A stretch of 64,000 nt of DNA from Escherichia phage vB_EcoM_005. The notes beneath the pieces were generated by a model. It searched no databases, was not told where the DNA came from, and saw only the letters and a list, made by a program, of their open reading frames with translations. Both the position numbers and the translations under genes were made by a program. Location: sequence record MK295203. One strand, given 5' to 3'. Shown here piece by piece: positions 5,742 through 48,839 of this stretch. Each line of letters opens with the position of its first letter. Position 1 is the first letter of the stretch.

Positions 5742-5764
5742 GGATACTATAGACCTATCAACTT

Positions 5765-5794
5765 GTTTACACCGTGGTAGGACTGTGGTATAGT
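5765..5794 (+). promoter_or_regulatory. T4-type early promoter (GTTTACA-N17-TATAGT) with stem-loop around the -10
   Basis: GTTTACACCGTGGTAGGACTGTGGTATAGT; GGTAGGACT/AGTCCTACC inverted repeat flanks the -10. Confidence 0.55.
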
Positions 5795-5824
5795 AGTCCT
5801 ACCGAAACAAATGAGGAAATCGAA

Positions 5825-6379
5825 ATGGGTAAGTTCTTTGAAGAGCGTAAGTTTTACAAGTTCGTTGGTGAATACACTAAAAACAAATTCACTAATAACG
5901 GTGCTTATGGCCTCAATACAGCTTTTGCTAAGTATGTGGGTATGAATCCGTTTGAAGTTGAAATTGATTACCATAATGGGCGTGAACGTGTAAGCCGAAT
6001 TCGTGTATATGACGAGATGATGTTTGTCGACCCGAGCAAACTCACAGGTAATCCTGACGATGCAAATAGTGTTCTTTTTAATTCAGCGGGCTTTTTTAGC
6101 CATGAATTCGAATACTTTATCGAAGTGGTAGACCCTAAAGAACTGCAGTTAGTTTTCCAGAACCCTGAAATCAAACCTATTAAAACTCCGGCCGATTGGA
6201 AAGTGCTTATTGTTAAAAACGGTAAGATTGAAGTTCATTCTCGCCATAACACAAAGGAACAAGCTGATCGTCAGGCTGAAGAGCTTTTGACCAATTCGTT
6301 CCAGCAAGTGTGTTATATTGTTAAAGGCGACGTTACCCAAGCTACCACTACCAAACAACTTAAGTTGGAGACAATCTAA
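5825..6379 (+). CDS. Hypothetical protein (cd.2-like position)
   Basis: Start at MGKFFEERKFYKF with RBS GAGGAA; track ORF 5774..6379. Confidence 0.55.
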   Translation: MGKFFEERKFYKFVGEYTKNKFTNNGAYGLNTAFAKYVGMNPFEVEIDYHNGRERVSRIRVYDEMMFVDPSKLTGNPDDANSVLFNSAGFFSHEFEYFIEVVDPKELQLVFQNPEIKPIKTPADWKVLIVKNGKIEVHSRHNTKEQADRQAEELLTNSFQQVCYIVKGDVTQATTTKQLKLETI

Positions 6380-8580: not shown

Positions 8581-8610
8581 GTTTTACGGTGTACCTCTTG
8601 AATGTATTTT
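8581..8610 (+). promoter_or_regulatory. Possible early promoter (TTTTAC-N17-TATTTT)
   Basis: GTTTTACGGTGTACCTCTTGAATGTATTTT in the 260-bp ORF-free leader downstream of rIII. Confidence 0.3.
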
Positions 8611-8772
8611 GTACTATCACGTGTCAGAAAAAGGTTATCTGTCTAAGCCGTGGTTGGTATGATGACGAGGTTTATGGTTATCCTGTCGTTAAATATCTAA
8701 AACCTATGTTCCCCTTGAGGGCTTGCGCAGGCAACGCCAATAAGTCCTGCATTCTAATTTAAGAGATTTAAA

Positions 8773-8934
8773 ATGGCCAAGAAAGAAGTTAAAGTAGTTG
8801 ACGGTACCTCTAAACGCGCTGGTTACAAGCGTGCGTCCAACAAGCGTATCAATCAGGTAGTTGATAAGCTTCAAGCTCGTGCCCGTGCAGTATTGCGTGC
8901 AGATGCTGCTTGCTTTGGTAAGCCTCAGGCATAA
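8773..8934 (+). CDS. Small basic protein (30.9-like position), 53 aa
   Basis: MAKKEVKVVDGTSKRAGYKRASNKRINQ...; below the 60-aa ORF-track cutoff; followed by a strong terminator. Confidence 0.4.
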   Translation: MAKKEVKVVDGTSKRAGYKRASNKRINQVVDKLQARARAVLRADAACFGKPQA

Positions 8935-8939
8935 GTTAT

Positions 8940-8965
8940 GGGACTCTTCGGAGTCCCATTTTTGT
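8940..8965 (+). terminator. Rho-independent terminator
   Basis: GGGACTCTTCGGAGTCCC hairpin followed by ATTTTTGTTT. Confidence 0.7.
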
Positions 8966-8986
8966 TTCTAAATCTTTAAAAAAAGG

Positions 8987-9016
8987 GTGTACATCTCCGG
9001 TAGGCATGATACTATA
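8987..9016 (+). promoter_or_regulatory. Early promoter variant plus conserved leader (cassette copy 1)
   Basis: GTGTACA...TACTAT, then ATAGACATGTACCAAATAATACGAAAACAAACTGGAGAATAAAATG. Confidence 0.4.
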
Positions 9017-9056
9017 GACATGTACCAAATAATACGAAAACAAACTGGAGAATAAA

Positions 9057-9389
9057 ATGAAAACTGTAAATCTGAATGCATCTGTTAAAGCTAAATGTTT
9101 CAACGGTGGATATCAAGAAACCATGTGGGTCCTGACTGCAGTTGAAGGTGATATCATAGAAGTTGAAACAACTGAAGGTATGGGTACTGATTTTACATTC
9201 ACCATCGAGCTTCACAACTTCTTTACAGGTTGGATTTATGAACTGAAAACTGTAATTACCGGTCGTATTGAAGAAAACAAAATTGGTGAATTCTATTACG
9301 TTAATGCCCGTACACGCGCTGAACGTCTGATTGCTCAGATGAAAAAAGTTGGTAAACTTGATATGAAAAATTGGAATGTTGTGAAATAA
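9057..9389 (+). CDS. Hypothetical protein (30.8-like position)
   Basis: 110 aa ORF with RBS GGAG. Confidence 0.55.
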   Translation: MKTVNLNASVKAKCFNGGYQETMWVLTAVEGDIIEVETTEGMGTDFTFTIELHNFFTGWIYELKTVITGRIEENKIGEFYYVNARTRAERLIAQMKKVGKLDMKNWNVVK

Positions 9390-9392
9390 ATG

Positions 9393-9422
9393 TTTTACTT
9401 TGGTACAGGTTGTGTTATTATA
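9393..9422 (+). promoter_or_regulatory. Early promoter plus conserved leader (cassette copy 2)
   Basis: TTTTAC-N17-TATTAT inside a GGTACAGGT/ACCTGTACC stem-loop, followed by the same ~40-nt leader as copy 1. Confidence 0.45.
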
Positions 9423-9462
9423 GACCTGTACCAAATAATACGAAAACAAACTGGAGAATAAA

Positions 9463-9828
9463 ATGAACTACATCAACTTCGAACGTAAATATGTTTCTAA
9501 CGGTATCGCTGGTTCTTCTGAAGTTATTTGCCTGTGGAAACACGAAAACGGTACAGTGTGTGAAATCGAACAGTGCATGACTCCTAACTACGTTTATATG
9601 CGCTTTGAAAATGGTATTACGGTTTCAATCACAATGGAAGGTTCTACTTTTAAAATCGCTTTAGATGATGATTTCCGTCAACGTGATTTAGGTACCCATC
9701 CTTGCTGGAACGGTGCTAATCGTAAGCTTCTGGTTAAAACCTGGATTCGTCACATCCTGAGCAACCGAGCTAAACCTGAACACCTGGAAGCAATCTTTGA
9801 TGTAGTTCTGAACGAATTCGATATCTAA
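9463..9828 (+). CDS. Hypothetical protein (30.7-like position)
   Basis: 121 aa ORF; cysteine-rich (CLW...CEIEQC...HPC). Confidence 0.55.
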   Translation: MNYINFERKYVSNGIAGSSEVICLWKHENGTVCEIEQCMTPNYVYMRFENGITVSITMEGSTFKIALDDDFRQRDLGTHPCWNGANRKLLVKTWIRHILSNRAKPEHLEAIFDVVLNEFDI

Positions 9829-9843
9829 TCTTAACTTAAAAAT

Positions 9844-9863
9844 GGAGGCTTCGGCCTCCTTTG
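9844..9863 (+). terminator. Terminator-like hairpin
   Basis: GGAGGCTTCGGCCTCC followed by TTTG. Confidence 0.5.
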
Positions 9864-9874
9864 AGGAAAATATT

Positions 9875-10042
9875 ATGTTTATGACCACTTATTTTGATAC
9901 TCGTAAAAATTTCTGTGAAGTTGTTTTCTCTAAAGCAGGTAAAGATGTTCCTGCCGACAAACAACCTACTCGTGAATCTATTAAGGCTTATGGACCTCTG
10001 ACATCTATGGTGGTAATGTTAAATCACACGGCTTTCAGATGA
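9875..10042 (+). CDS. Hypothetical small protein
   Basis: Track ORF 9842..10042 begins inside the terminator hairpin; the internal ATG (MFMTTYFDTRK) has RBS GAGGAA. Confidence 0.4.
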   Translation: MFMTTYFDTRKNFCEVVFSKAGKDVPADKQPTRESIKAYGPLTSMVVMLNHTAFR

Positions 10043-10049
10043 GGTTCTA

Positions 10050-10244
10050 ATGCAACTATTCTTATCACAAACTGTTCAGCTAAAAGGTGTAGGTATTCCT
10101 GGAATGATTTCCAAGGTTCTACCTGCTTTTAAATTAGGTAATGTTACTATTAAAGAAGCCTACACCGTCCTATGGGTCGATGGAACTGAAGACGTTCGTA
10201 TGGGTGGTGAACTGTCTGTAATCAAATGTTTAAAGCGAGGATAA
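10050..10244 (+). CDS. Hypothetical protein
   Basis: 64 aa ORF. Confidence 0.45.
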   Translation: MQLFLSQTVQLKGVGIPGMISKVLPAFKLGNVTIKEAYTVLWVDGTEDVRMGGELSVIKCLKRG

Positions 10245-13497: not shown

Positions 13498-15582
13498 ATG
13501 ACCGAACAATTAAATGAAGTGTTTGAGTCCGAAGGCACACTGCCTACAGTAAACTTGAACCCTAAACTTAAAGTACCACAGATTTGGAAGATTGGCGACG
13601 CGGAATCCCAATTGGTTGCTCGTATGGTATCCTATGCCTCTGAAGGCGACGCCATTAAACAAGTTAAATTAGGTGACAAATATGCCCACGTTATTTTGAT
13701 GAGTTTATCAGCTAAAGGTACTCCAGCCGAACTTAAGGGTGGCCTTGGCCCTACTCCTGTAGATGCGATTAATACTATTTTTGATGTGGTTTATGACCAA
13801 GTTAAAAAGCTTCGTATGGATGCCGTGATGTTCCGTTTTCCTACCAAGAAAATGAAAGGACAAGGGCCTATTGTCCAACGTATTATCCAACGTTTGGTAG
13901 CACAGAAAACCGGTGGACGTTTTAAAGTAGTTCCAGCTATGTACCAATTTACCGGTAAACATACTTATATCCTAGTAGTTCGTAAACAAGCTGATATCGA
14001 AGATATCAAAGGTATGCCAGGAATTAATTCCGAATTATACACTAAGGTAGATTCTGATGTCGGTGAAGTTTATATTTCTAAAAAAGAAGGCGCTCAGGTT
14101 ACTAAAGAAACTGCTATTGCCGGCAGTATTGCTAAAGTTGAAGAACGTCGCACTGATAAAATGGTTATAACCAAGACTAAGATTTCCCGTCGTGCTATTG
14201 CGGCAAGCCAGTCATTAGAAGCAGATCGTAATGAAGGTGAATTGTTTCAGAAATATGAACAAACTGCCAATGAGTTCAGTGCGCCTGCTACGGCGGAATT
14301 AATTCCACAAGCGGCCGAAGTTGAATTATCATTATCATCCGAAACAGCTAAGGATAAGCTGGCTACGGCTATTGATTTTAAAATTTATAATACTATGGAT
14401 GATTCATTTAAATTTGCGGATGAAGTTTCTTACGGTGATAAAATTAACTCTTCTTTAGAAAAATTTGTCAAAAAAATTAAAAATGAAAAAACCACGTCAG
14501 TTAAAGCTTTAGCTGCCTTTGTTGAAGTTGCTAATGAAATCGCAGAATCTATTAAAAGTGATTGGTTTGAAGATTATAGAAAAGACAATTTCCATTTGGA
14601 AAAAGAGATATTGAATGAAAACAGTGAAAGAGTATGGAAACAACGTAAGTCTTCATTCTTGTCTAAGATAATGTATACATACGCTATAGAATCAACTAGA
14701 GAAATTCTTAATATAACAACATCTCGAGACCCTAAACAATATACACTTGCAGAAAAACGAGCTATCAGAGAATACGCCTCTTCAGCTTATGTTGATATTA
14801 ACAATGTCCTTCTTGGCCGTTATAAACCGGGCTTTTATGAAGTTTTGGACGAAAGCGAAGTTAAACGTGCTATTGATGGAATGGATTCTGCCTTTAAAAA
14901 TGGTGACCGTTTACCTGAAGGAATAATGGTTTATAGAGCACAATCTTTGCGCGCGCCTATCTACGAAGCATTAGTTAAAAATAAGGTATTCTATTTTAGA
15001 AACTATGTTTCAACCTCATTGGCTCCAATCATTTTTGGTGGCTTTAAAGAGAATGCGGCTATTGGTCTTGCTTCCGATGATGTTCGAAAAGAATTAAACA
15101 TTGATAATAATGACGAAGGTGTTACCATCTCTGCTAGTCAAGTGCGTACACATATGTATGCACCGGATCAAATCCGTGTTGATGTTGGCTGGGCTATTAG
15201 TGGTGCTCATAAGGTTAACGTGATTTATCCTGGCCAATTAAGCATGCATGCCAACGAAAAGGAAATAATTTTACCACGCGGGCTACTTGTAAAAATAGAT
15301 AAAATCGTGGATGCATCAGCCAATACTGGTTCTGCGGTGTCTAACAATAAATTTATTCAAGCCGAAGTTATGACGTCAGATGAGCTTCAAGAGTCAGTGG
15401 TATATGATGGTGACGTACTAGTGGAAACCGGCGAGTTGGTCGTATATCAAGATGATTTCGATACTTCCGAAAGCCCTGTATCTTTTGATTCATTTGTTAA
15501 ATCTACACGGGTTGATGTACTGACTCTTTTGGCTTCATGCATAGACCTCTATGACATCCCAGAAAAATTCATCCAAGGGTAA
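13498..15582 (+). CDS. alt: Alt-like ADP-ribosyltransferase (paralog A)
   Basis: 694 aa (T4 Alt 682 aa); ART R / S-T-S / E-x-E triad present: YRAQSL, YVSTSL, HANEKEIILP. Confidence 0.75.
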   Translation: MTEQLNEVFESEGTLPTVNLNPKLKVPQIWKIGDAESQLVARMVSYASEGDAIKQVKLGDKYAHVILMSLSAKGTPAELKGGLGPTPVDAINTIFDVVYDQVKKLRMDAVMFRFPTKKMKGQGPIVQRIIQRLVAQKTGGRFKVVPAMYQFTGKHTYILVVRKQADIEDIKGMPGINSELYTKVDSDVGEVYISKKEGAQVTKETAIAGSIAKVEERRTDKMVITKTKISRRAIAASQSLEADRNEGELFQKYEQTANEFSAPATAELIPQAAEVELSLSSETAKDKLATAIDFKIYNTMDDSFKFADEVSYGDKINSSLEKFVKKIKNEKTTSVKALAAFVEVANEIAESIKSDWFEDYRKDNFHLEKEILNENSERVWKQRKSSFLSKIMYTYAIESTREILNITTSRDPKQYTLAEKRAIREYASSAYVDINNVLLGRYKPGFYEVLDESEVKRAIDGMDSAFKNGDRLPEGIMVYRAQSLRAPIYEALVKNKVFYFRNYVSTSLAPIIFGGFKENAAIGLASDDVRKELNIDNNDEGVTISASQVRTHMYAPDQIRVDVGWAISGAHKVNVIYPGQLSMHANEKEIILPRGLLVKIDKIVDASANTGSAVSNNKFIQAEVMTSDELQESVVYDGDVLVETGELVVYQDDFDTSESPVSFDSFVKSTRVDVLTLLASCIDLYDIPEKFIQG

Positions 15583-15585
15583 ATA

Positions 15586-17610
15586 ATGGAAAATTTAAAC
15601 GAAGTTTTTGATAGCGATTCCGCTAAAAACTATCCAGTAATAAATCTTAAACCGGGTTCCGGTATTCCGCAGATTTTCTCTATCCAAGCACCAGGTAATG
15701 ATAACTTGGTCGCTCGTATGGTATCTTATGCGTCTCAAGGAGACGCTATTAAAATGGTTAAGCCAGGCGACAAATATGTCCACGTTATTCTAATGAGTTT
15801 GTCGAGCAAGGGTGCTCCGGCTGAACTTAAGGGCGGCCTTGGTTCTGACCCACTTGGTACACTGAATACCATTTTTGATACCGTATACGAACAAGTAAAC
15901 AAACTTAAAATGGATGCGGTTTTATTCCGTTTCCCTACCAAGAAAATGAAAGGTAAGGGCCCTACTGTCCAACGCGTATTAGCTCGTTTGGTGATGGCTC
16001 GTACCGGTGGTAAGTTTAAAGTTGTCGATGATATGTTCCAATTCAGTGGAAAACATACCTATGTTCTTTTAGTACGTCGTGGTTCTAATATCGAAGATAT
16101 CAAGGGTATGCCTGAAATTGATGCCGACCTTTATACCAAAGTCGATTCTAAAGTCGGCGAAGTTTATGTTTCTAAGAAAACAGGCCAGGCCGTAAGTAAG
16201 GTAGAAGCCGTAGCGGCATCTATTGCACAGGTTGAAGAGAAACGTACCGATAAGGCTGTCATTACTCGTACTAAGATTTCCCGTCGTATGGCGGCTGCCG
16301 CGCAGTATTCTACTGCTGAGCCTGAAACTTTGTCCCCTAAAGAATTGCAGGTTTATAACGAATTTGAAGCTTCTGTACCGGTTCACACTGCCGAAGGCCT
16401 TGAGAACGAAGGTATTGAACAGATTAGTCAGAACTTTAAAAAAGGTGCTATTACCAAAATGCGCCAGGCTTCTCAGTTTAAATCTAAGAGTGAGGACCTT
16501 GCCAACTTTAGATACACTATTGCTCTCACACACGCTTTAATGACTGATAGTAAATTTAAACTAAATTATGCTAATAGAGATAAACAAGGGTTTGAAATTT
16601 ACTCTAAAAATATGGCATTTTTTAATACAGAAGTCGATAGACTTTTAAGCGGCCTTTCGCAAATCAATACAACCAATAGTCTGGATATTATTAAGAAAAT
16701 TGTTAATAACCTGAGCGCCCGTTTTAATGGCTCCCCTTCAGAGAAAGCATCTCGAATTGCTTTCGCTATGGAAGCCGTTTATAAACTGGTTAACGATTCT
16801 ATTGGTGATGCATATGCTTATTCAGGCGAGCTCATTAAACCTAAGGACCTAACCAAAGACGAAAGCAATGCTATTATTGAATATTGTGCGGCTGAATATG
16901 CTCCTATGAACTTATTCCTTTTAGGTAAACCTGAATCCGAAAACAATACAACGGCTATTAGATTGATTAAGGATTTAGACTCAGCATTTACTAAGGGTAT
17001 TAAACTTCCTAAGGGTACTATTTTGTATCGTGGTCAGGATTTGCCATACAAAATTCTGCGTCATAATATCGATAACAAAACATTTTACTTTAAGAACTTT
17101 GTGTCAGCCTCATTAAAGCCTAACATCTTTGGTGAATTTGGTAAAAATTATATGGCCCTCGACAACCAAGCCGTTTTTGTTGGTGGTGAAGGTTCTTTAT
17201 CCTCCGCTGATGAGTTGTTTAAATTGGCTAGTGGTAGTTCATCTGATGTAGGCGAAGTCGATGATGAAGAGGTAGAATGGGAAGAAGACGAGTTCGGTAA
17301 TCCAATTGCACCTGAAGGTCCTGCGGATAGAATTGCTGAAATTGGTATGGTTATTCGAGGTGCTGAAGCAGTTAAAGTTATCGCTCCTGGCGACCTTACA
17401 GAATATGCGGAAGCTACCGTAACACCTCCTTCAGAGCTCAGCGAATCTGTTTACGATGGTGACCATTTGATGGAAACTGGTGAAGTTCGCCTGATGGATG
17501 GATTTAGTCAATTCTTGGTTAATGAATCCGTTTCTGAAAGCAACGAAGCTATGGAAATCCTTGCCGCGTCTTTGGATATCTCTTCTTTATCAAATAAATT
17601 CAAAATGTAG
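15586..17610 (+). CDS. Alt-like ADP-ribosyltransferase paralog B, divergent C-terminal domain
   Basis: 674 aa; N-terminal ~230 aa about 70-75% identical to paralog A; R (YRGQDL) and S-x-S (FVSASL) present, but no clear E-x-E at the aligned position (GAEAVKVIAP); acidic insert DDEEVEWEEDE. Confidence 0.7.
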   Translation: MENLNEVFDSDSAKNYPVINLKPGSGIPQIFSIQAPGNDNLVARMVSYASQGDAIKMVKPGDKYVHVILMSLSSKGAPAELKGGLGSDPLGTLNTIFDTVYEQVNKLKMDAVLFRFPTKKMKGKGPTVQRVLARLVMARTGGKFKVVDDMFQFSGKHTYVLLVRRGSNIEDIKGMPEIDADLYTKVDSKVGEVYVSKKTGQAVSKVEAVAASIAQVEEKRTDKAVITRTKISRRMAAAAQYSTAEPETLSPKELQVYNEFEASVPVHTAEGLENEGIEQISQNFKKGAITKMRQASQFKSKSEDLANFRYTIALTHALMTDSKFKLNYANRDKQGFEIYSKNMAFFNTEVDRLLSGLSQINTTNSLDIIKKIVNNLSARFNGSPSEKASRIAFAMEAVYKLVNDSIGDAYAYSGELIKPKDLTKDESNAIIEYCAAEYAPMNLFLLGKPESENNTTAIRLIKDLDSAFTKGIKLPKGTILYRGQDLPYKILRHNIDNKTFYFKNFVSASLKPNIFGEFGKNYMALDNQAVFVGGEGSLSSADELFKLASGSSSDVGEVDDEEVEWEEDEFGNPIAPEGPADRIAEIGMVIRGAEAVKVIAPGDLTEYAEATVTPPSELSESVYDGDHLMETGEVRLMDGFSQFLVNESVSESNEAMEILAASLDISSLSNKFKM

Positions 17611-46908: not shown

Positions 46909-47521
46909 AACTCCACTCCTTCCATTTAGGTTTATCATTCTTTATTCTATTAATAACTGCGCTTTTGACTATACCAAAATACTCGGCGCATTCTTTACCT
47001 GTCGAGAATACCATTTCTCCGACTCTAACTGCTCTGGCCGCAGGATTTTTACTACCGGTAAAATCTGGGTGTTTCACACGCGTCCACATTAATGCGGTAG
47101 ATTCTTTTCTACGCTTTAGCCCTTCTTCAGTCCATTCTCTTGATTTTGCCGCCTCTGACATTCTTTTTCTTGATTCTATAGAACGGGTTTTACCTATATT
47201 AGGGTTATCTTTAGGATTGTAATAAGAAGGACCACCTTGTCCTCCTTTTACCAAATTAACACACTGAGCAAAATCTTCTTTAAGAATATCGACTAAAAGT
47301 TCTTCGGCTTCCTTTAATAATTCCGGATTACCGAAATCTTTCGACCATAATACCTGTTTTATACAGTTTCGTCCATATTTTTTCTTAGCATTCGAAATAT
47401 ACGTTCCTGAGCCAACGTATGAATCCAGCTTTGGATTAGATTTATCCGAATGTCTTTTACCGCCATAAATTTTTAATCCGTCCGACGTTTCAAACTCAGT
47501 CACGTATAATCTATAAAACAT
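46895..47521 (-). CDS. GIY-YIG homing endonuclease (Seg-like) inserted at the 13/14 junction
   Basis: [24 protein letters not shown]...YVGSG GIY-YIG motif; C-terminal HTH; track ORF 46895..47668 is fused in frame to a duplicated gene-14 N-terminal fragment. Confidence 0.75.
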
Positions 47522-47715
47522 AATTATCCAATTAAAATAGGTGTTGGTGGGTCGAGTAAATCTAATTCGAAAGTTGACGAAAGGGTTCATTATTTCAGTT
47601 TCGTTCGTGTTAGCATAGCCAGTATTATCTTCTAGCTTAGCGAATAAACTCGAATCGAAAGTAGCCATAATTATCCAATTAAAATAGGTGTTGGTGGGTC
47701 GAGTAAATCTAATTC
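47520..47715. repeat. Two exact 50-bp direct repeats flanking a duplicated gene-14 5' fragment
   Basis: CATAATTATCCAATTAAAATAGGTGTTGGTGGGTCGAGTAAATCTAATTC at ~47520-47569 and ~47666-47715; the 96 bp between encodes [32 protein letters not shown]. Confidence 0.75.
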
Positions 47716-48839
47716 CTCGCGAAGTCGTTCTTTTTCTAAACGAGCTTCTTCAATCAATCGAATAGCCATCTACAGTGGTTCCACCTGCAAGTTGCATGCC
47801 TTGGTGTTTGGCTAAAATATTACCATTGACCTCTTTAACCAGTGCCGTAGCATAATCTTTAACCCAACGGTTATTATATGCACCAGTCTTGAAGACCAAG
47901 GTCCTCACCTACACGCATACCAGAAATACGACGTGATGGATTATCCCAAACAGCTCCAGGGCTCCATTCATTTTCGTCACACCCACCAGAGGCATATCCA
48001 TATCCTGCAGTATTTCCTACCATAGAATCAACCCCATTAAAAGAGCGAGTATAAACTTCAATTACAATAAAATCACCTTTAACAAAGTTACCCATTACCT
48101 TCAACTGTTCAGTGGCATCGTTATACCAATAATCAGGCAACAAAATATTACCATTGACTTCTTTAACCAATGCCGTCGCATAATCTTTGACCCAACGGTT
48201 ATTATATGAACCATCTTGCAAACCAAGGTCTTCACCTGCCCTCATACCTGAAATACGACGAGCCGGGTTATCCCAAATAGCTCCGGGGCTCCATTCATTT
48301 TCGTCACACCCACCAGAGGCATATCCATATCCTGCAGTATTTCCTACCATAGAATCAACCCCATTAAAAGTGGAACCAAAAGGTCTTGCATCATAGAACG
48401 ATATTGCATTAATTGTGTAAAATAACCAAGGTCGGCACCGAAGGCATTAGGCCCAAAGCTGTTACAAGAAGGTTCCAAGACCACCATTAATACCGGCCAA
48501 GCCTAATACAAAATCAGTAAACCATGGATAAGTCGCTTGGCCATCCATAGATGTTAAAGAACCCACGTTGGTTCTCAAAATTTGTGTTACCGCAAATATA
48601 TTACGGCCTTTAAGGTCAAATACACCGTTACGGAATTTTTCTTCGTCATCATGGCCTATATAAAAAGCCTGATAACCTTTGTTATAGCCGTTATAATGAT
48701 ACTCACCGTAGAGCTCCAGTGCGCGCTGGATGCAATCGTATACTTGGTCTGTAGTTACTTCAATATTTGTAATCGGTGCACCCAGGCGGCGCAGGATTGC
48801 GTCCTTGAGTTGCTTAGGGTTATATGATTCACTTGCCAT
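47672..48839 (-). pseudogene. 13: Neck protein gp13 with internal tandem duplication, in-frame stops and frameshifts
   Basis: N-terminal 125 aa (track ORF 48462..48839) match T4 gp13, then two in-frame stops; track ORF 47874..48350 holds [43 protein letters not shown] twice, 107 codons apart; C-terminus ...[28 protein letters not shown] is in another frame. Confidence 0.65.
47815..48365. repeat. Tandem duplication (~230 bp units, ~320 bp period, ~90% identity) inside gene 13
   Basis: AAAATATTACCATTGAC.TCTTTAACCA.TGCCGT.GCATAATCTTT... at ~47815 and again at ~48135. Confidence 0.7.

Follow-up and report, generated by a model that had tools for sequence, protein, structure and literature searches.

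The window analysed here, a stretch of 64,000 nucleotides (nt) from Escherichia phage vB_EcoM_005 (record MK295203, one strand, numbered 5' to 3' from its first letter), contains two adjacent small genes, homologues of T4 genes 30.8 (9057-9389) and 30.7 (9463-9828), whose 5' regions share a nearly identical 55-nt direct repeat reaching from the promoter -10 box through the 5' leader and ribosome-binding site into the first codons. We consider it probable that the two regions are tandem early-gene expression cassettes for 30.8 and 30.7, targeted by RegB, homogenised by gene conversion, and serving as shuffling patches of the type known in T4-like phages as promoter-early stem-loops (PeSLs). Relatives were surveyed by BLAST against GenBank phage records, where the Dhakavirus phages Bp7, IME281, WG01, QL01 and JS98 (Tevenvirinae) are 96-98% identical to the locus (98% for Bp7, IME281 and WG01); judged by its sequence, the source phage is a JS98-like, T4-type member of Dhakavirus. 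The gene order rIII, 30.9, 30.8, 30.7, 30.6 and on to gene 30 (DNA ligase) is syntenic with the JS98 and T4 annotation, and it is on this synteny that the two open reading frames (ORFs) are taken to be homologues of T4 30.8 and 30.7. The parts of the locus described below, from 8773 to 9859, lie on the plus strand.

The two copies of the repeat (family D8, 9007-9061 and 9413-9467) align without gaps and are identical at 52 of 55 positions (95%), the mismatches falling at 9009/9415, 9012/9418 and 9020/9426. Each comprises a -10 box, a 5' leader, a combined Shine-Dalgarno and RegB site, and a terminal ATGAA that begins a different ORF in each case. An initial annotation of this DNA had placed a shared leader at about 9015-9059 and 9420-9464, and this was borne out: the 46-nt pattern it gave has exactly two matches in the window, at 9014-9059 and 9420-9465, and none in 100 dinucleotide-preserving shuffles. 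A third copy was found neither in the window nor in the complete Dhakavirus genomes of IMG/VR, and the idea of a dispersed leader family was rejected on these two copies per genome; the "3 places per record" returned by one search most likely arise where other early promoters match briefly through their generic -10/start motif, as some do inside the window. The repeat starts precisely at the TG of the extended -10 element. Upstream of this point the -35 boxes and spacers differ between the cassettes, and those of each cassette are orthologous to their own counterpart in RB69 or T4. The promoters themselves are not duplicated; they are orthologues of two distinct T4 promoters, and the description of the locus as a duplicated promoter and leader is right from the -10 box onward and wrong for the -35 boxes and spacers.

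The comparison of relatives that had been proposed as a check came out positive. The leader is confined to a single pair, the ORFs it flanks do vary, and five different gene arrangements present in public genomes have breakpoints that coincide with the two promoter-leader cassettes. About 24 Dhakavirus phages carry a T4-type 30.8 allele, to which that of the window belongs (at the nt level it is 76% identical to T4 30.8 and 53-55% to the VR7-type allele). In IME08, IME341, Ec2-ASingh, CLB_P2, dhaeg, ABTNLsp5, C6 and PSD2002 the same repeats flank a VR7-type 30.8 instead, the assignment being confirmed by sequence for PSD2002 and deduced from locus size for IME08, CLB_P2, dhaeg and ABTNLsp5. 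The two Dhakavirus alleles are 54% identical to each other at the nt level, and the VR7-type allele of IME341, Ec2-ASingh and C6 is 92% identical to VR7 and 54-55% to the window. The edges of the exchange are sharp: the window and IME341/Ec2-ASingh are 96-100% identical up to 9059, 40-66% over 9060-9389, and 90-100% from 9390. C6 has in addition an ORF of 118 amino acids (aa), which brings a terminator of its own and separates the terminator of 30.9 from the promoter of 30.8; this insert (L033, 415-800) is a GC-rich ORF (MNDRYNHTFTSPRGASY...) followed by a UUCG terminator, with a composition unlike that of the surrounding phage DNA.

Other relatives have lost one or both genes. JS10, CUA3 and AnYang are without 30.8 and 30.7, and there the 30.8 promoter leads through ATAGA(C/T) and a different leader into 30.6. 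In the Mosigvirus-type phages TuIa, G2285, PTE-Eco05, AV109, AV114, AV115, AV116, AV118, SQ17 and JM10, 30.8 is precisely deleted, its promoter and leader being fused to the ATG of 30.7 within the shared GGAGAATAAAATGAAC. G2285 (L021, 2065-2292) shows a second deletion there, with 30.7 cut off after ~39 codons and fused out of frame to sequence resembling the 3' part of 30.5. Klebsiella phage JD18, PG7 and Virsaitis27 possess another ORF between 30.8 and 30.7, and in JD18 the 30.7-type leader also precedes an unrelated gene ~78 kb away. A second adjacent gene pair of the same cassette design occurs in JD18 at ~39 kb (L034, 1440-1845): in its first cassette a terminator and a promoter are followed by the leader AGACCTGTACCACCC...GGAGAATAAAATG, which is nearly the same as the JD18 30.7 leader ~78 kb off, and its second has a promoter enclosed by a TGGAGCT/AGCTCCA hairpin and then GGAGAATAAAATG. 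Where it is present, the 30.7 protein retains at least 90% aa identity across four genera (tblastn).

The near-identity of the two leaders most likely stems from a homogenisation specific to the Dhakavirus lineage, by gene conversion or recombination between older, already similar cassettes, and is not an ancient duplication of the whole cassette. From the -10 box to the ATG, paired leaders within one genome are 98% identical here, against 83% in RB69, 73% in VR7 and 67% in T4, and orthologous leaders of different genera are at most 89% identical. Over the 27-nt leader core the disparity is wider, the paired copies being 96% identical here and 45-71% in RB69, VR7 and T4. Within Dhakavirus, the paired leaders of IME341 are identical, and those of QL01 and IME281 are one further substitution apart. 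That paralogous leaders are closer than orthologous ones, over a short tract with distinct flanks, argues for gene conversion. As to its direction, the 30.7 cassette would be the likelier donor, since the closest outgroup sequence to the leader is the VR7 30.7 leader and the CCTGTACC motif is part of the 30.7 stem-loop in all genera.

Both ends of the repeat have counterparts at other genes. Its first ~14 nt (TGnTAnTATAGACnT) reflect the -10/start-site consensus of the early promoters of this phage, being common to those at 2134, 5745 and 32375, where the motif TAnTATAGAC followed by (C/T)T recurs at promoter-like sites. At the other end, GGAGAATAAA(A)ATG precedes both 30.8 and 30.7 in T4, RB69, VR7 and the JS98 group, that is, in all four genera examined, and also other JD18 genes, and the recurrence of the two motifs at other sites indicates functional constraint on both ends of the repeat. 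Convergence alone, through independent selection for an optimal -10 box and start site, an A-rich leader and a RegB/Shine-Dalgarno site, could on these grounds be invoked without any recombination. It fails on the core between the two ends, which is 96% identical here and 100% in IME341 but only 45-71% in RB69, VR7 and T4, whose cassettes have the same functions; it is hard to see why an A-rich spacer for which no sequence requirement is known should converge to identity, and this explanation is accordingly quite improbable.

A shared cis-regulatory RNA, in which the core is bound by a trans-acting factor (a small RNA, or a phage RNA-binding protein of the RegA-like repressor kind) through which 30.8 and 30.7 are regulated together, so that identity is kept by selection, would account for the pair being near-identical in all the listed Dhakavirus genomes whichever 30.8 allele lies between, and for the presence of the JD18 leader at a distant gene as well. 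We nevertheless regard it as highly improbable, because the leader is predicted to be completely unstructured, the core is unconserved in sister genera that have both genes, and substitutions and a 3-8 nt insertion are tolerated in individual strains. Neither does the leader resemble a catalogued element: an Rfam-type RNA family search of 8600-10000 gave no credible match, and the best, mir-12 (E = 0.6; 19.9 bits against a gathering score of 55), was rejected as due to chance. The remaining idea, that 30.8 and 30.7 are diverged paralogues left by a tandem gene duplication with their common upstream region kept, has next to no chance of being right and as to the ORFs is effectively refuted, since these, although adjacent, similar in size, alike in orientation and both beginning with ATGAA, yield no BLASTP alignment at E values up to 100 and fall into separate Pfam families (PF06019, Phage_30_8, for the 110-aa 30.8 product; PF06919, Phage_T4_Gp30_7, for the 121-aa 30.7 product), just as the initial annotation had held them to be unrelated, and since the -35 and spacer regions are unrelated and the paired leaders of T4 have in common just the RegB/Shine-Dalgarno site.

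Homogenisation by conversion thus preferred, the cassettes themselves can be considered. An early-promoter-like element had been proposed ahead of each copy, and both copies do stand in register behind promoters of the T4 early type, which are also in register with T4-early-type promoters at 2112, 5766, 17611 and 32352 and have annotated orthologues in TuIa and ASO78A. The T4 records NC_000866 and AF158101 have no promoter features annotated at the locus, and a literature search for T4 transcription-start data covering 30.7 and 30.8 yielded nothing usable. Both T4 genes are early at the level of RNA as well as protein (supplement of PMC9697503).

Cassette 1 opens with the terminator hairpin that had likewise been noted before the first copy. 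This intrinsic terminator after 30.9 (8938-8969; fold -16.2 kcal/mol, z = -4.4) was reported by the terminator scan and consists of a GC-rich 9-bp stem closed by a UUCG loop (8938-8959) with the U tract TTTTTGTTT directly after; the records of ASO78A, G2285 and TuIa label the hairpin a terminator or a stem-loop. In PSD2002 (L038, 238-258) the top of this hairpin has the opposite orientation, GGGACTCCGAAGAGTCCC where the window reads GGGACTCTTCGGAGTCCC, the stem being kept and the loop flipped. An AT-rich tract, a known PeSL component, follows at 8960-8984 (22 of 25 bases A or T), and then the 30.8 early promoter (8987-9015), with a -35 box GTGTAC at 8987-8992, a spacer of 13-14 nt and an extended -10 TGaTACTAT at 9007-9015, from which transcription is predicted to start at ~9021-9023. 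A generic sigma-70 scan, which reports the 30.7 promoter alone of the pair, does not list this one (8 of 12 consensus positions), and the call is therefore based on the T4-early pattern and on orthology to an RB69/TuIa promoter annotated with -35 and -10 signals. The Shine-Dalgarno GGAG at 9047 lies seven bases ahead of the ATG at 9057.

In cassette 2, the -35 box of the 30.7 early promoter (9393-9421) starts four bases past the 30.8 stop codon. This promoter, nearly invariant in T4, RB69 and VR7, has a -35 box TTTTAC at 9393-9398 (TTTACT at 9394-9399 according to the scan) and an extended -10 TGtTATTAT at 9413-9421, a scan hit with TG; the predicted start is at ~9427-9429, and GGAG at 9453 is again seven bases ahead of the ATG, at 9463. 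The cassette also contains an inverted repeat (9399-9435), TTTGGTACAGG (9399-9409) pairing with CCTGTACCAAA (9425-9435) over 11 bp around a 15-nt loop (-20.2 kcal/mol, z = -4.4), which encloses the -10 box and whose 3' arm belongs to the direct repeat. Copy 1 has no significant counterpart of it (z = -1.1). The hairpin is found in T4, RB69 and VR7 (z = -3.9 to -4.8). Altogether, five T4-like genera besides this one retain the stem-loop, and three alternative stem sequences occur among them; at the equivalent position JD18 has the stem TTGGGTGGT/ACCACCCAA, Virsaitis27 has GGTGAGAGTC/GACTCTCACC, and PG7 has CTCCGTTGTAT/ATACAACGGAG, whose 3' arm holds the 30.7 Shine-Dalgarno (GGAG). Over seven phages with four different stem sequences, z ranges from -3.8 to -6.4.

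What this stem-loop does can be narrowed down. It is followed by AAATAATACGAAAAC, not by a U tract, and is for that reason not a canonical terminator; the terminator scan is silent here, and the annotation of ASO78A calls the T4-type orthologue a terminator. Because its 5' arm lies upstream of the predicted 30.7 start, the hairpin would form only in RNA read through from the 30.8 promoter. It ends 17 nt before the Shine-Dalgarno, which stays free, so hiding the ribosome-binding site is not its role in the window. It may instead attenuate or insulate, or it may shield the 3' end of the 30.8 mRNA once RegB has cut downstream.

The initial annotation overlooked that the 3' end of each repeat copy is a predicted RegB/S1 site with a perfect match to the consensus. 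RegB together with ribosomal protein S1 recognises an 11-nt single-stranded RNA target with the consensus GGAGRAYARAA and the T4 optimum GGAGAAUAAAA (Durand et al., 2006, PMC1702504). The element GGAGAATAAAA, which is at the same time the Shine-Dalgarno sequence, occupies 9047-9057 before 30.8 and 9453-9463 before 30.7, and in both places agrees at 11 of 11 positions with the consensus and with the T4 optimum. These are the only two matches to GGAGRAYARAA in 64 kb, where 0.35 are expected, and both are inside the repeat. Each leader is A-rich, ~35 nt long and predicted to be unstructured (0 and -0.3 kcal/mol when folded from the putative starts), in keeping with the requirement for a single-stranded target. 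The 9453-9463 site is orthologous to the T4 30.7 site, whose Shine-Dalgarno region has served as an established substrate of RegB in assays by primer extension (PMC9409239, citing Truncaite et al., 2006). Since regB is annotated in JS98 (EpJS98_0107), the closest relatives suggest that the source phage has it too, and by analogy RegB cleavage may be expected there. Variant 30.7 leaders of VR5 and PSD2002 read GGATAATAAAA and keep GGAUAAUAAAA, a GGAU form followed by a strict A-rich tail; the GGAU form is cleavable only when such a tail follows (Durand et al., PMC1702504). Shine-Dalgarno and shut-off site in one, the 3' part of the repeat would be conserved by function.

If these elements act as their T4 counterparts do, host sigma-70 RNA polymerase would initiate at each T4-type early promoter with its extended -10, and the A-rich, unstructured leader with GGAG close to the AUG would give strong immediate-early translation, later shut off when RegB and S1 cut inside the GGAG of the site. 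The intrinsic terminator would insulate cassette 1 from upstream transcription, and cassette 2 would sit inside a conserved stem-loop formed solely in read-through RNA arriving from upstream. In the course of evolution the cassettes could supply patches of homology where 30.8 is swapped, lost or supplemented with further ORFs, in PeSL-type shuffling. As the 3' end of the cassette is an optimal RegB/S1 site as well, selection for the shut-off of early mRNA would preserve the microhomology used in deletion.

Several observations weigh against so full an account. The exact 30.8 deletion is absent from the 43 Dhakavirus-type records that cover at least 80% of a synthetic-junction query, and the 30.8 deletion in Mosigvirus may be a single inherited event. 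In RB49 there are many similar PeSLs, whereas the leader here is found at one gene pair only. Selection on the leader core and neutral conversion cannot be separated on these data. The regB gene lies outside the window, and the functional roles proposed are all carried over from T4 by analogy. Recombination may still be going on at the repeats but is unproven, because the loss of 30.8 to which the 55-nt repeats could give rise is seen in no Dhakavirus record. A bolder proposal, which we think rather unlikely, is that the repeats are a still-active recombination substrate, with 30.8 swappable, excised as a 406-bp mini-circle bearing one promoter and leader, and exchanged among co-infecting Tevenvirinae. 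Were this so, repeated exchange would have left its footprint in the homogenised leader, diversifying selection on a role in host interaction or anti-defence would lie behind the allele dimorphism of 30.8 and its recurrent loss, and the promoter-embedded stem-loop, with its four stem sequences, would be an insulator that makes the cassettes portable. Even on the more conservative reading of conversion-homogenised early cassettes, whose biology is largely known already, the locus is an unusually clean natural example of the PeSL model at a single, well-sampled site. It also offers an aid to annotating JS98-like therapeutic phages, in which early promoters, terminators and RegB sites can now be located, 30.8 being marked as dispensable and exchangeable and 30.7 as strongly conserved yet occasionally lost.

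Around the two cassettes, the upstream neighbour is a 53-aa homologue of 30.9 (8773-8934), identified from the ORF list and the JS98/T4 annotation of the syntenic locus. Downstream, a GC-rich UUCG hairpin (9844-9859; -14.9 kcal/mol, z = -3.4), reported by the terminator scan, follows 30.7 just ahead of the 30.6 ribosome-binding site. The 30.6 homologue is short, 55 aa (9875-10042) compared with 95 aa in JS98, the next ORF starting at 10050 (region 9875-10244), and the alignments of many close relatives end near 9992; together these suggest a deletion of ~110 nt, or else a replacement, at the 30.6/30.5 junction. Further repeats occur elsewhere in the window. Three collinear direct-repeat families (D1, D3 and D5; 72-80% identity) link 13612-14193 with 15706-16287 at a spacing of 2094 nt, probably as two diverged paralogous genes downstream of the ligase region, and tandem repeats at 47519-48370 (families D2, D4 and D9; spacings of 147 and 327-328 nt, 92-100% identity) are probably inside a structural gene with internal repeats.

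The resemblance to PeSL modules suggested by the initial annotation withstands comparison with the PeSLs described for RB49/phi1 (Arbiol et al., 2010, PMC2839356) and for T4/PST and KVP40/nt-1 (Comeau et al., 2014, PMC4122927). All the parts of such a module are present: a stem-loop or AT-rich tract, an early promoter resembling those of sigma-70, and a start codon preceded by a Shine-Dalgarno sequence. Against the T4/PST promoter consensus TTTACW-N17-TAYWAT, cassette 1 reads TGTACA-N16-TACTAT and cassette 2 TTTACT-N16-TATTAT, both with TG at -15/-14. Cassette 1 has its stem-loop upstream of the -35 box and cassette 2 around the -10 box; either placement corresponds to a published PeSL subclass, overlap with the -10 being among the commonest layouts (Arbiol et al., PMC2839356). 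The AT-rich tract, clear in cassette 1, is weak in cassette 2 (only ~10 nt, GAAATAAATG, between the 30.8 stop and the -35 box), and each cassette ends in the Shine-Dalgarno and start codon of the ORF downstream. As with PeSLs, the cassettes are intergenic, lie between small non-essential early ORFs, share one composite layout, and are associated with indels and replacements between close relatives, here an allele replacement bounded at 9059/9390, an ORF insertion and two types of deletion. The crossover between the -10 box and ATG that we infer for the Mosigvirus 30.8 deletion is matched in the sequenced mini-circles of RB49. The cassettes differ from PeSLs in that the near-identical part is the leader and not the promoter and stem-loop, and in that replacement here involves divergent alleles within one Pfam family and not an unrelated ORFan. 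The generic -10/start motif is seen again at 2112, 5766 and 32352, as are promoter-embedded hairpins; the specific leader occurs just twice per genome. At 5745-5830, a partial promoter remnant (TACTATAGACCTATCAACTT) stands directly before a complete early-type promoter (TTTACA ... TGGTATAGT) whose -10 is enclosed by an 11-bp inverted repeat resembling GGTAGGACTGT/ATAGTCCTACC, and the arrangement looks like a degraded half PeSL beside an intact one.

Transcript-specific hairpins of T4, as at e, soc, 49 and I-TevI, hide the ribosome-binding site in read-through RNA and not in RNA begun inside the hairpin. The 30.7 stem shares their geometry, its 5' arm being upstream of the predicted start so that only read-through RNA would fold, and the likeness extends to a 3' arm with GGAG in PG7 and with GAGGAG at window promoter 2112; it differs in leaving the Shine-Dalgarno free here, which makes insulation or 3'-end protection the likelier role. 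At promoter 2112 itself (2105-2185), a 9-bp stem, TCTCCTCAT/ATGAGGAGA (z = -3.15), has its 5' arm in the promoter spacer and the Shine-Dalgarno GAGGAG in its 3' arm, an arrangement in which read-through RNA would hide the ribosome-binding site and promoter-started RNA would not.

The closest parallels come from T4 itself. Like the RegB/S1 sites of T4 motA, motB and 30.7 (PMC1702504), the two sites here match at 11 of 11 positions, are predicted to be single-stranded, form the Shine-Dalgarno of an early gene and belong to a phage group that has RegB; they differ in being predicted sites and in lying within a longer duplicated leader. The T4 region upstream of gene 30 is orthologous to this locus and agrees with it in gene order. 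It too has a terminator following 30.9, an early promoter ahead of each of 30.8 and 30.7, a stem-loop associated with the promoter of 30.7, and a GGAG RegB site within the ribosome-binding site of either gene. Work on it by Truncaite and colleagues in 2006 reportedly described a pair of early promoters, a pair of RegB sites, a terminator, and a stem-loop conserved in 16 T4-type phages, and the TuIa record, from the same laboratory, has -35 and -10 signals, ribosome-binding site and stem-loops annotated. In T4, however, the two leaders have only GGAGAATAAA(A)ATG in common (67% overall), whereas here they have been homogenised to 52 of 55 positions, and it is this homogenisation of the whole leader in the JS98 lineage, along with the catalogue of natural variants at the locus, that appears not to have been described before.

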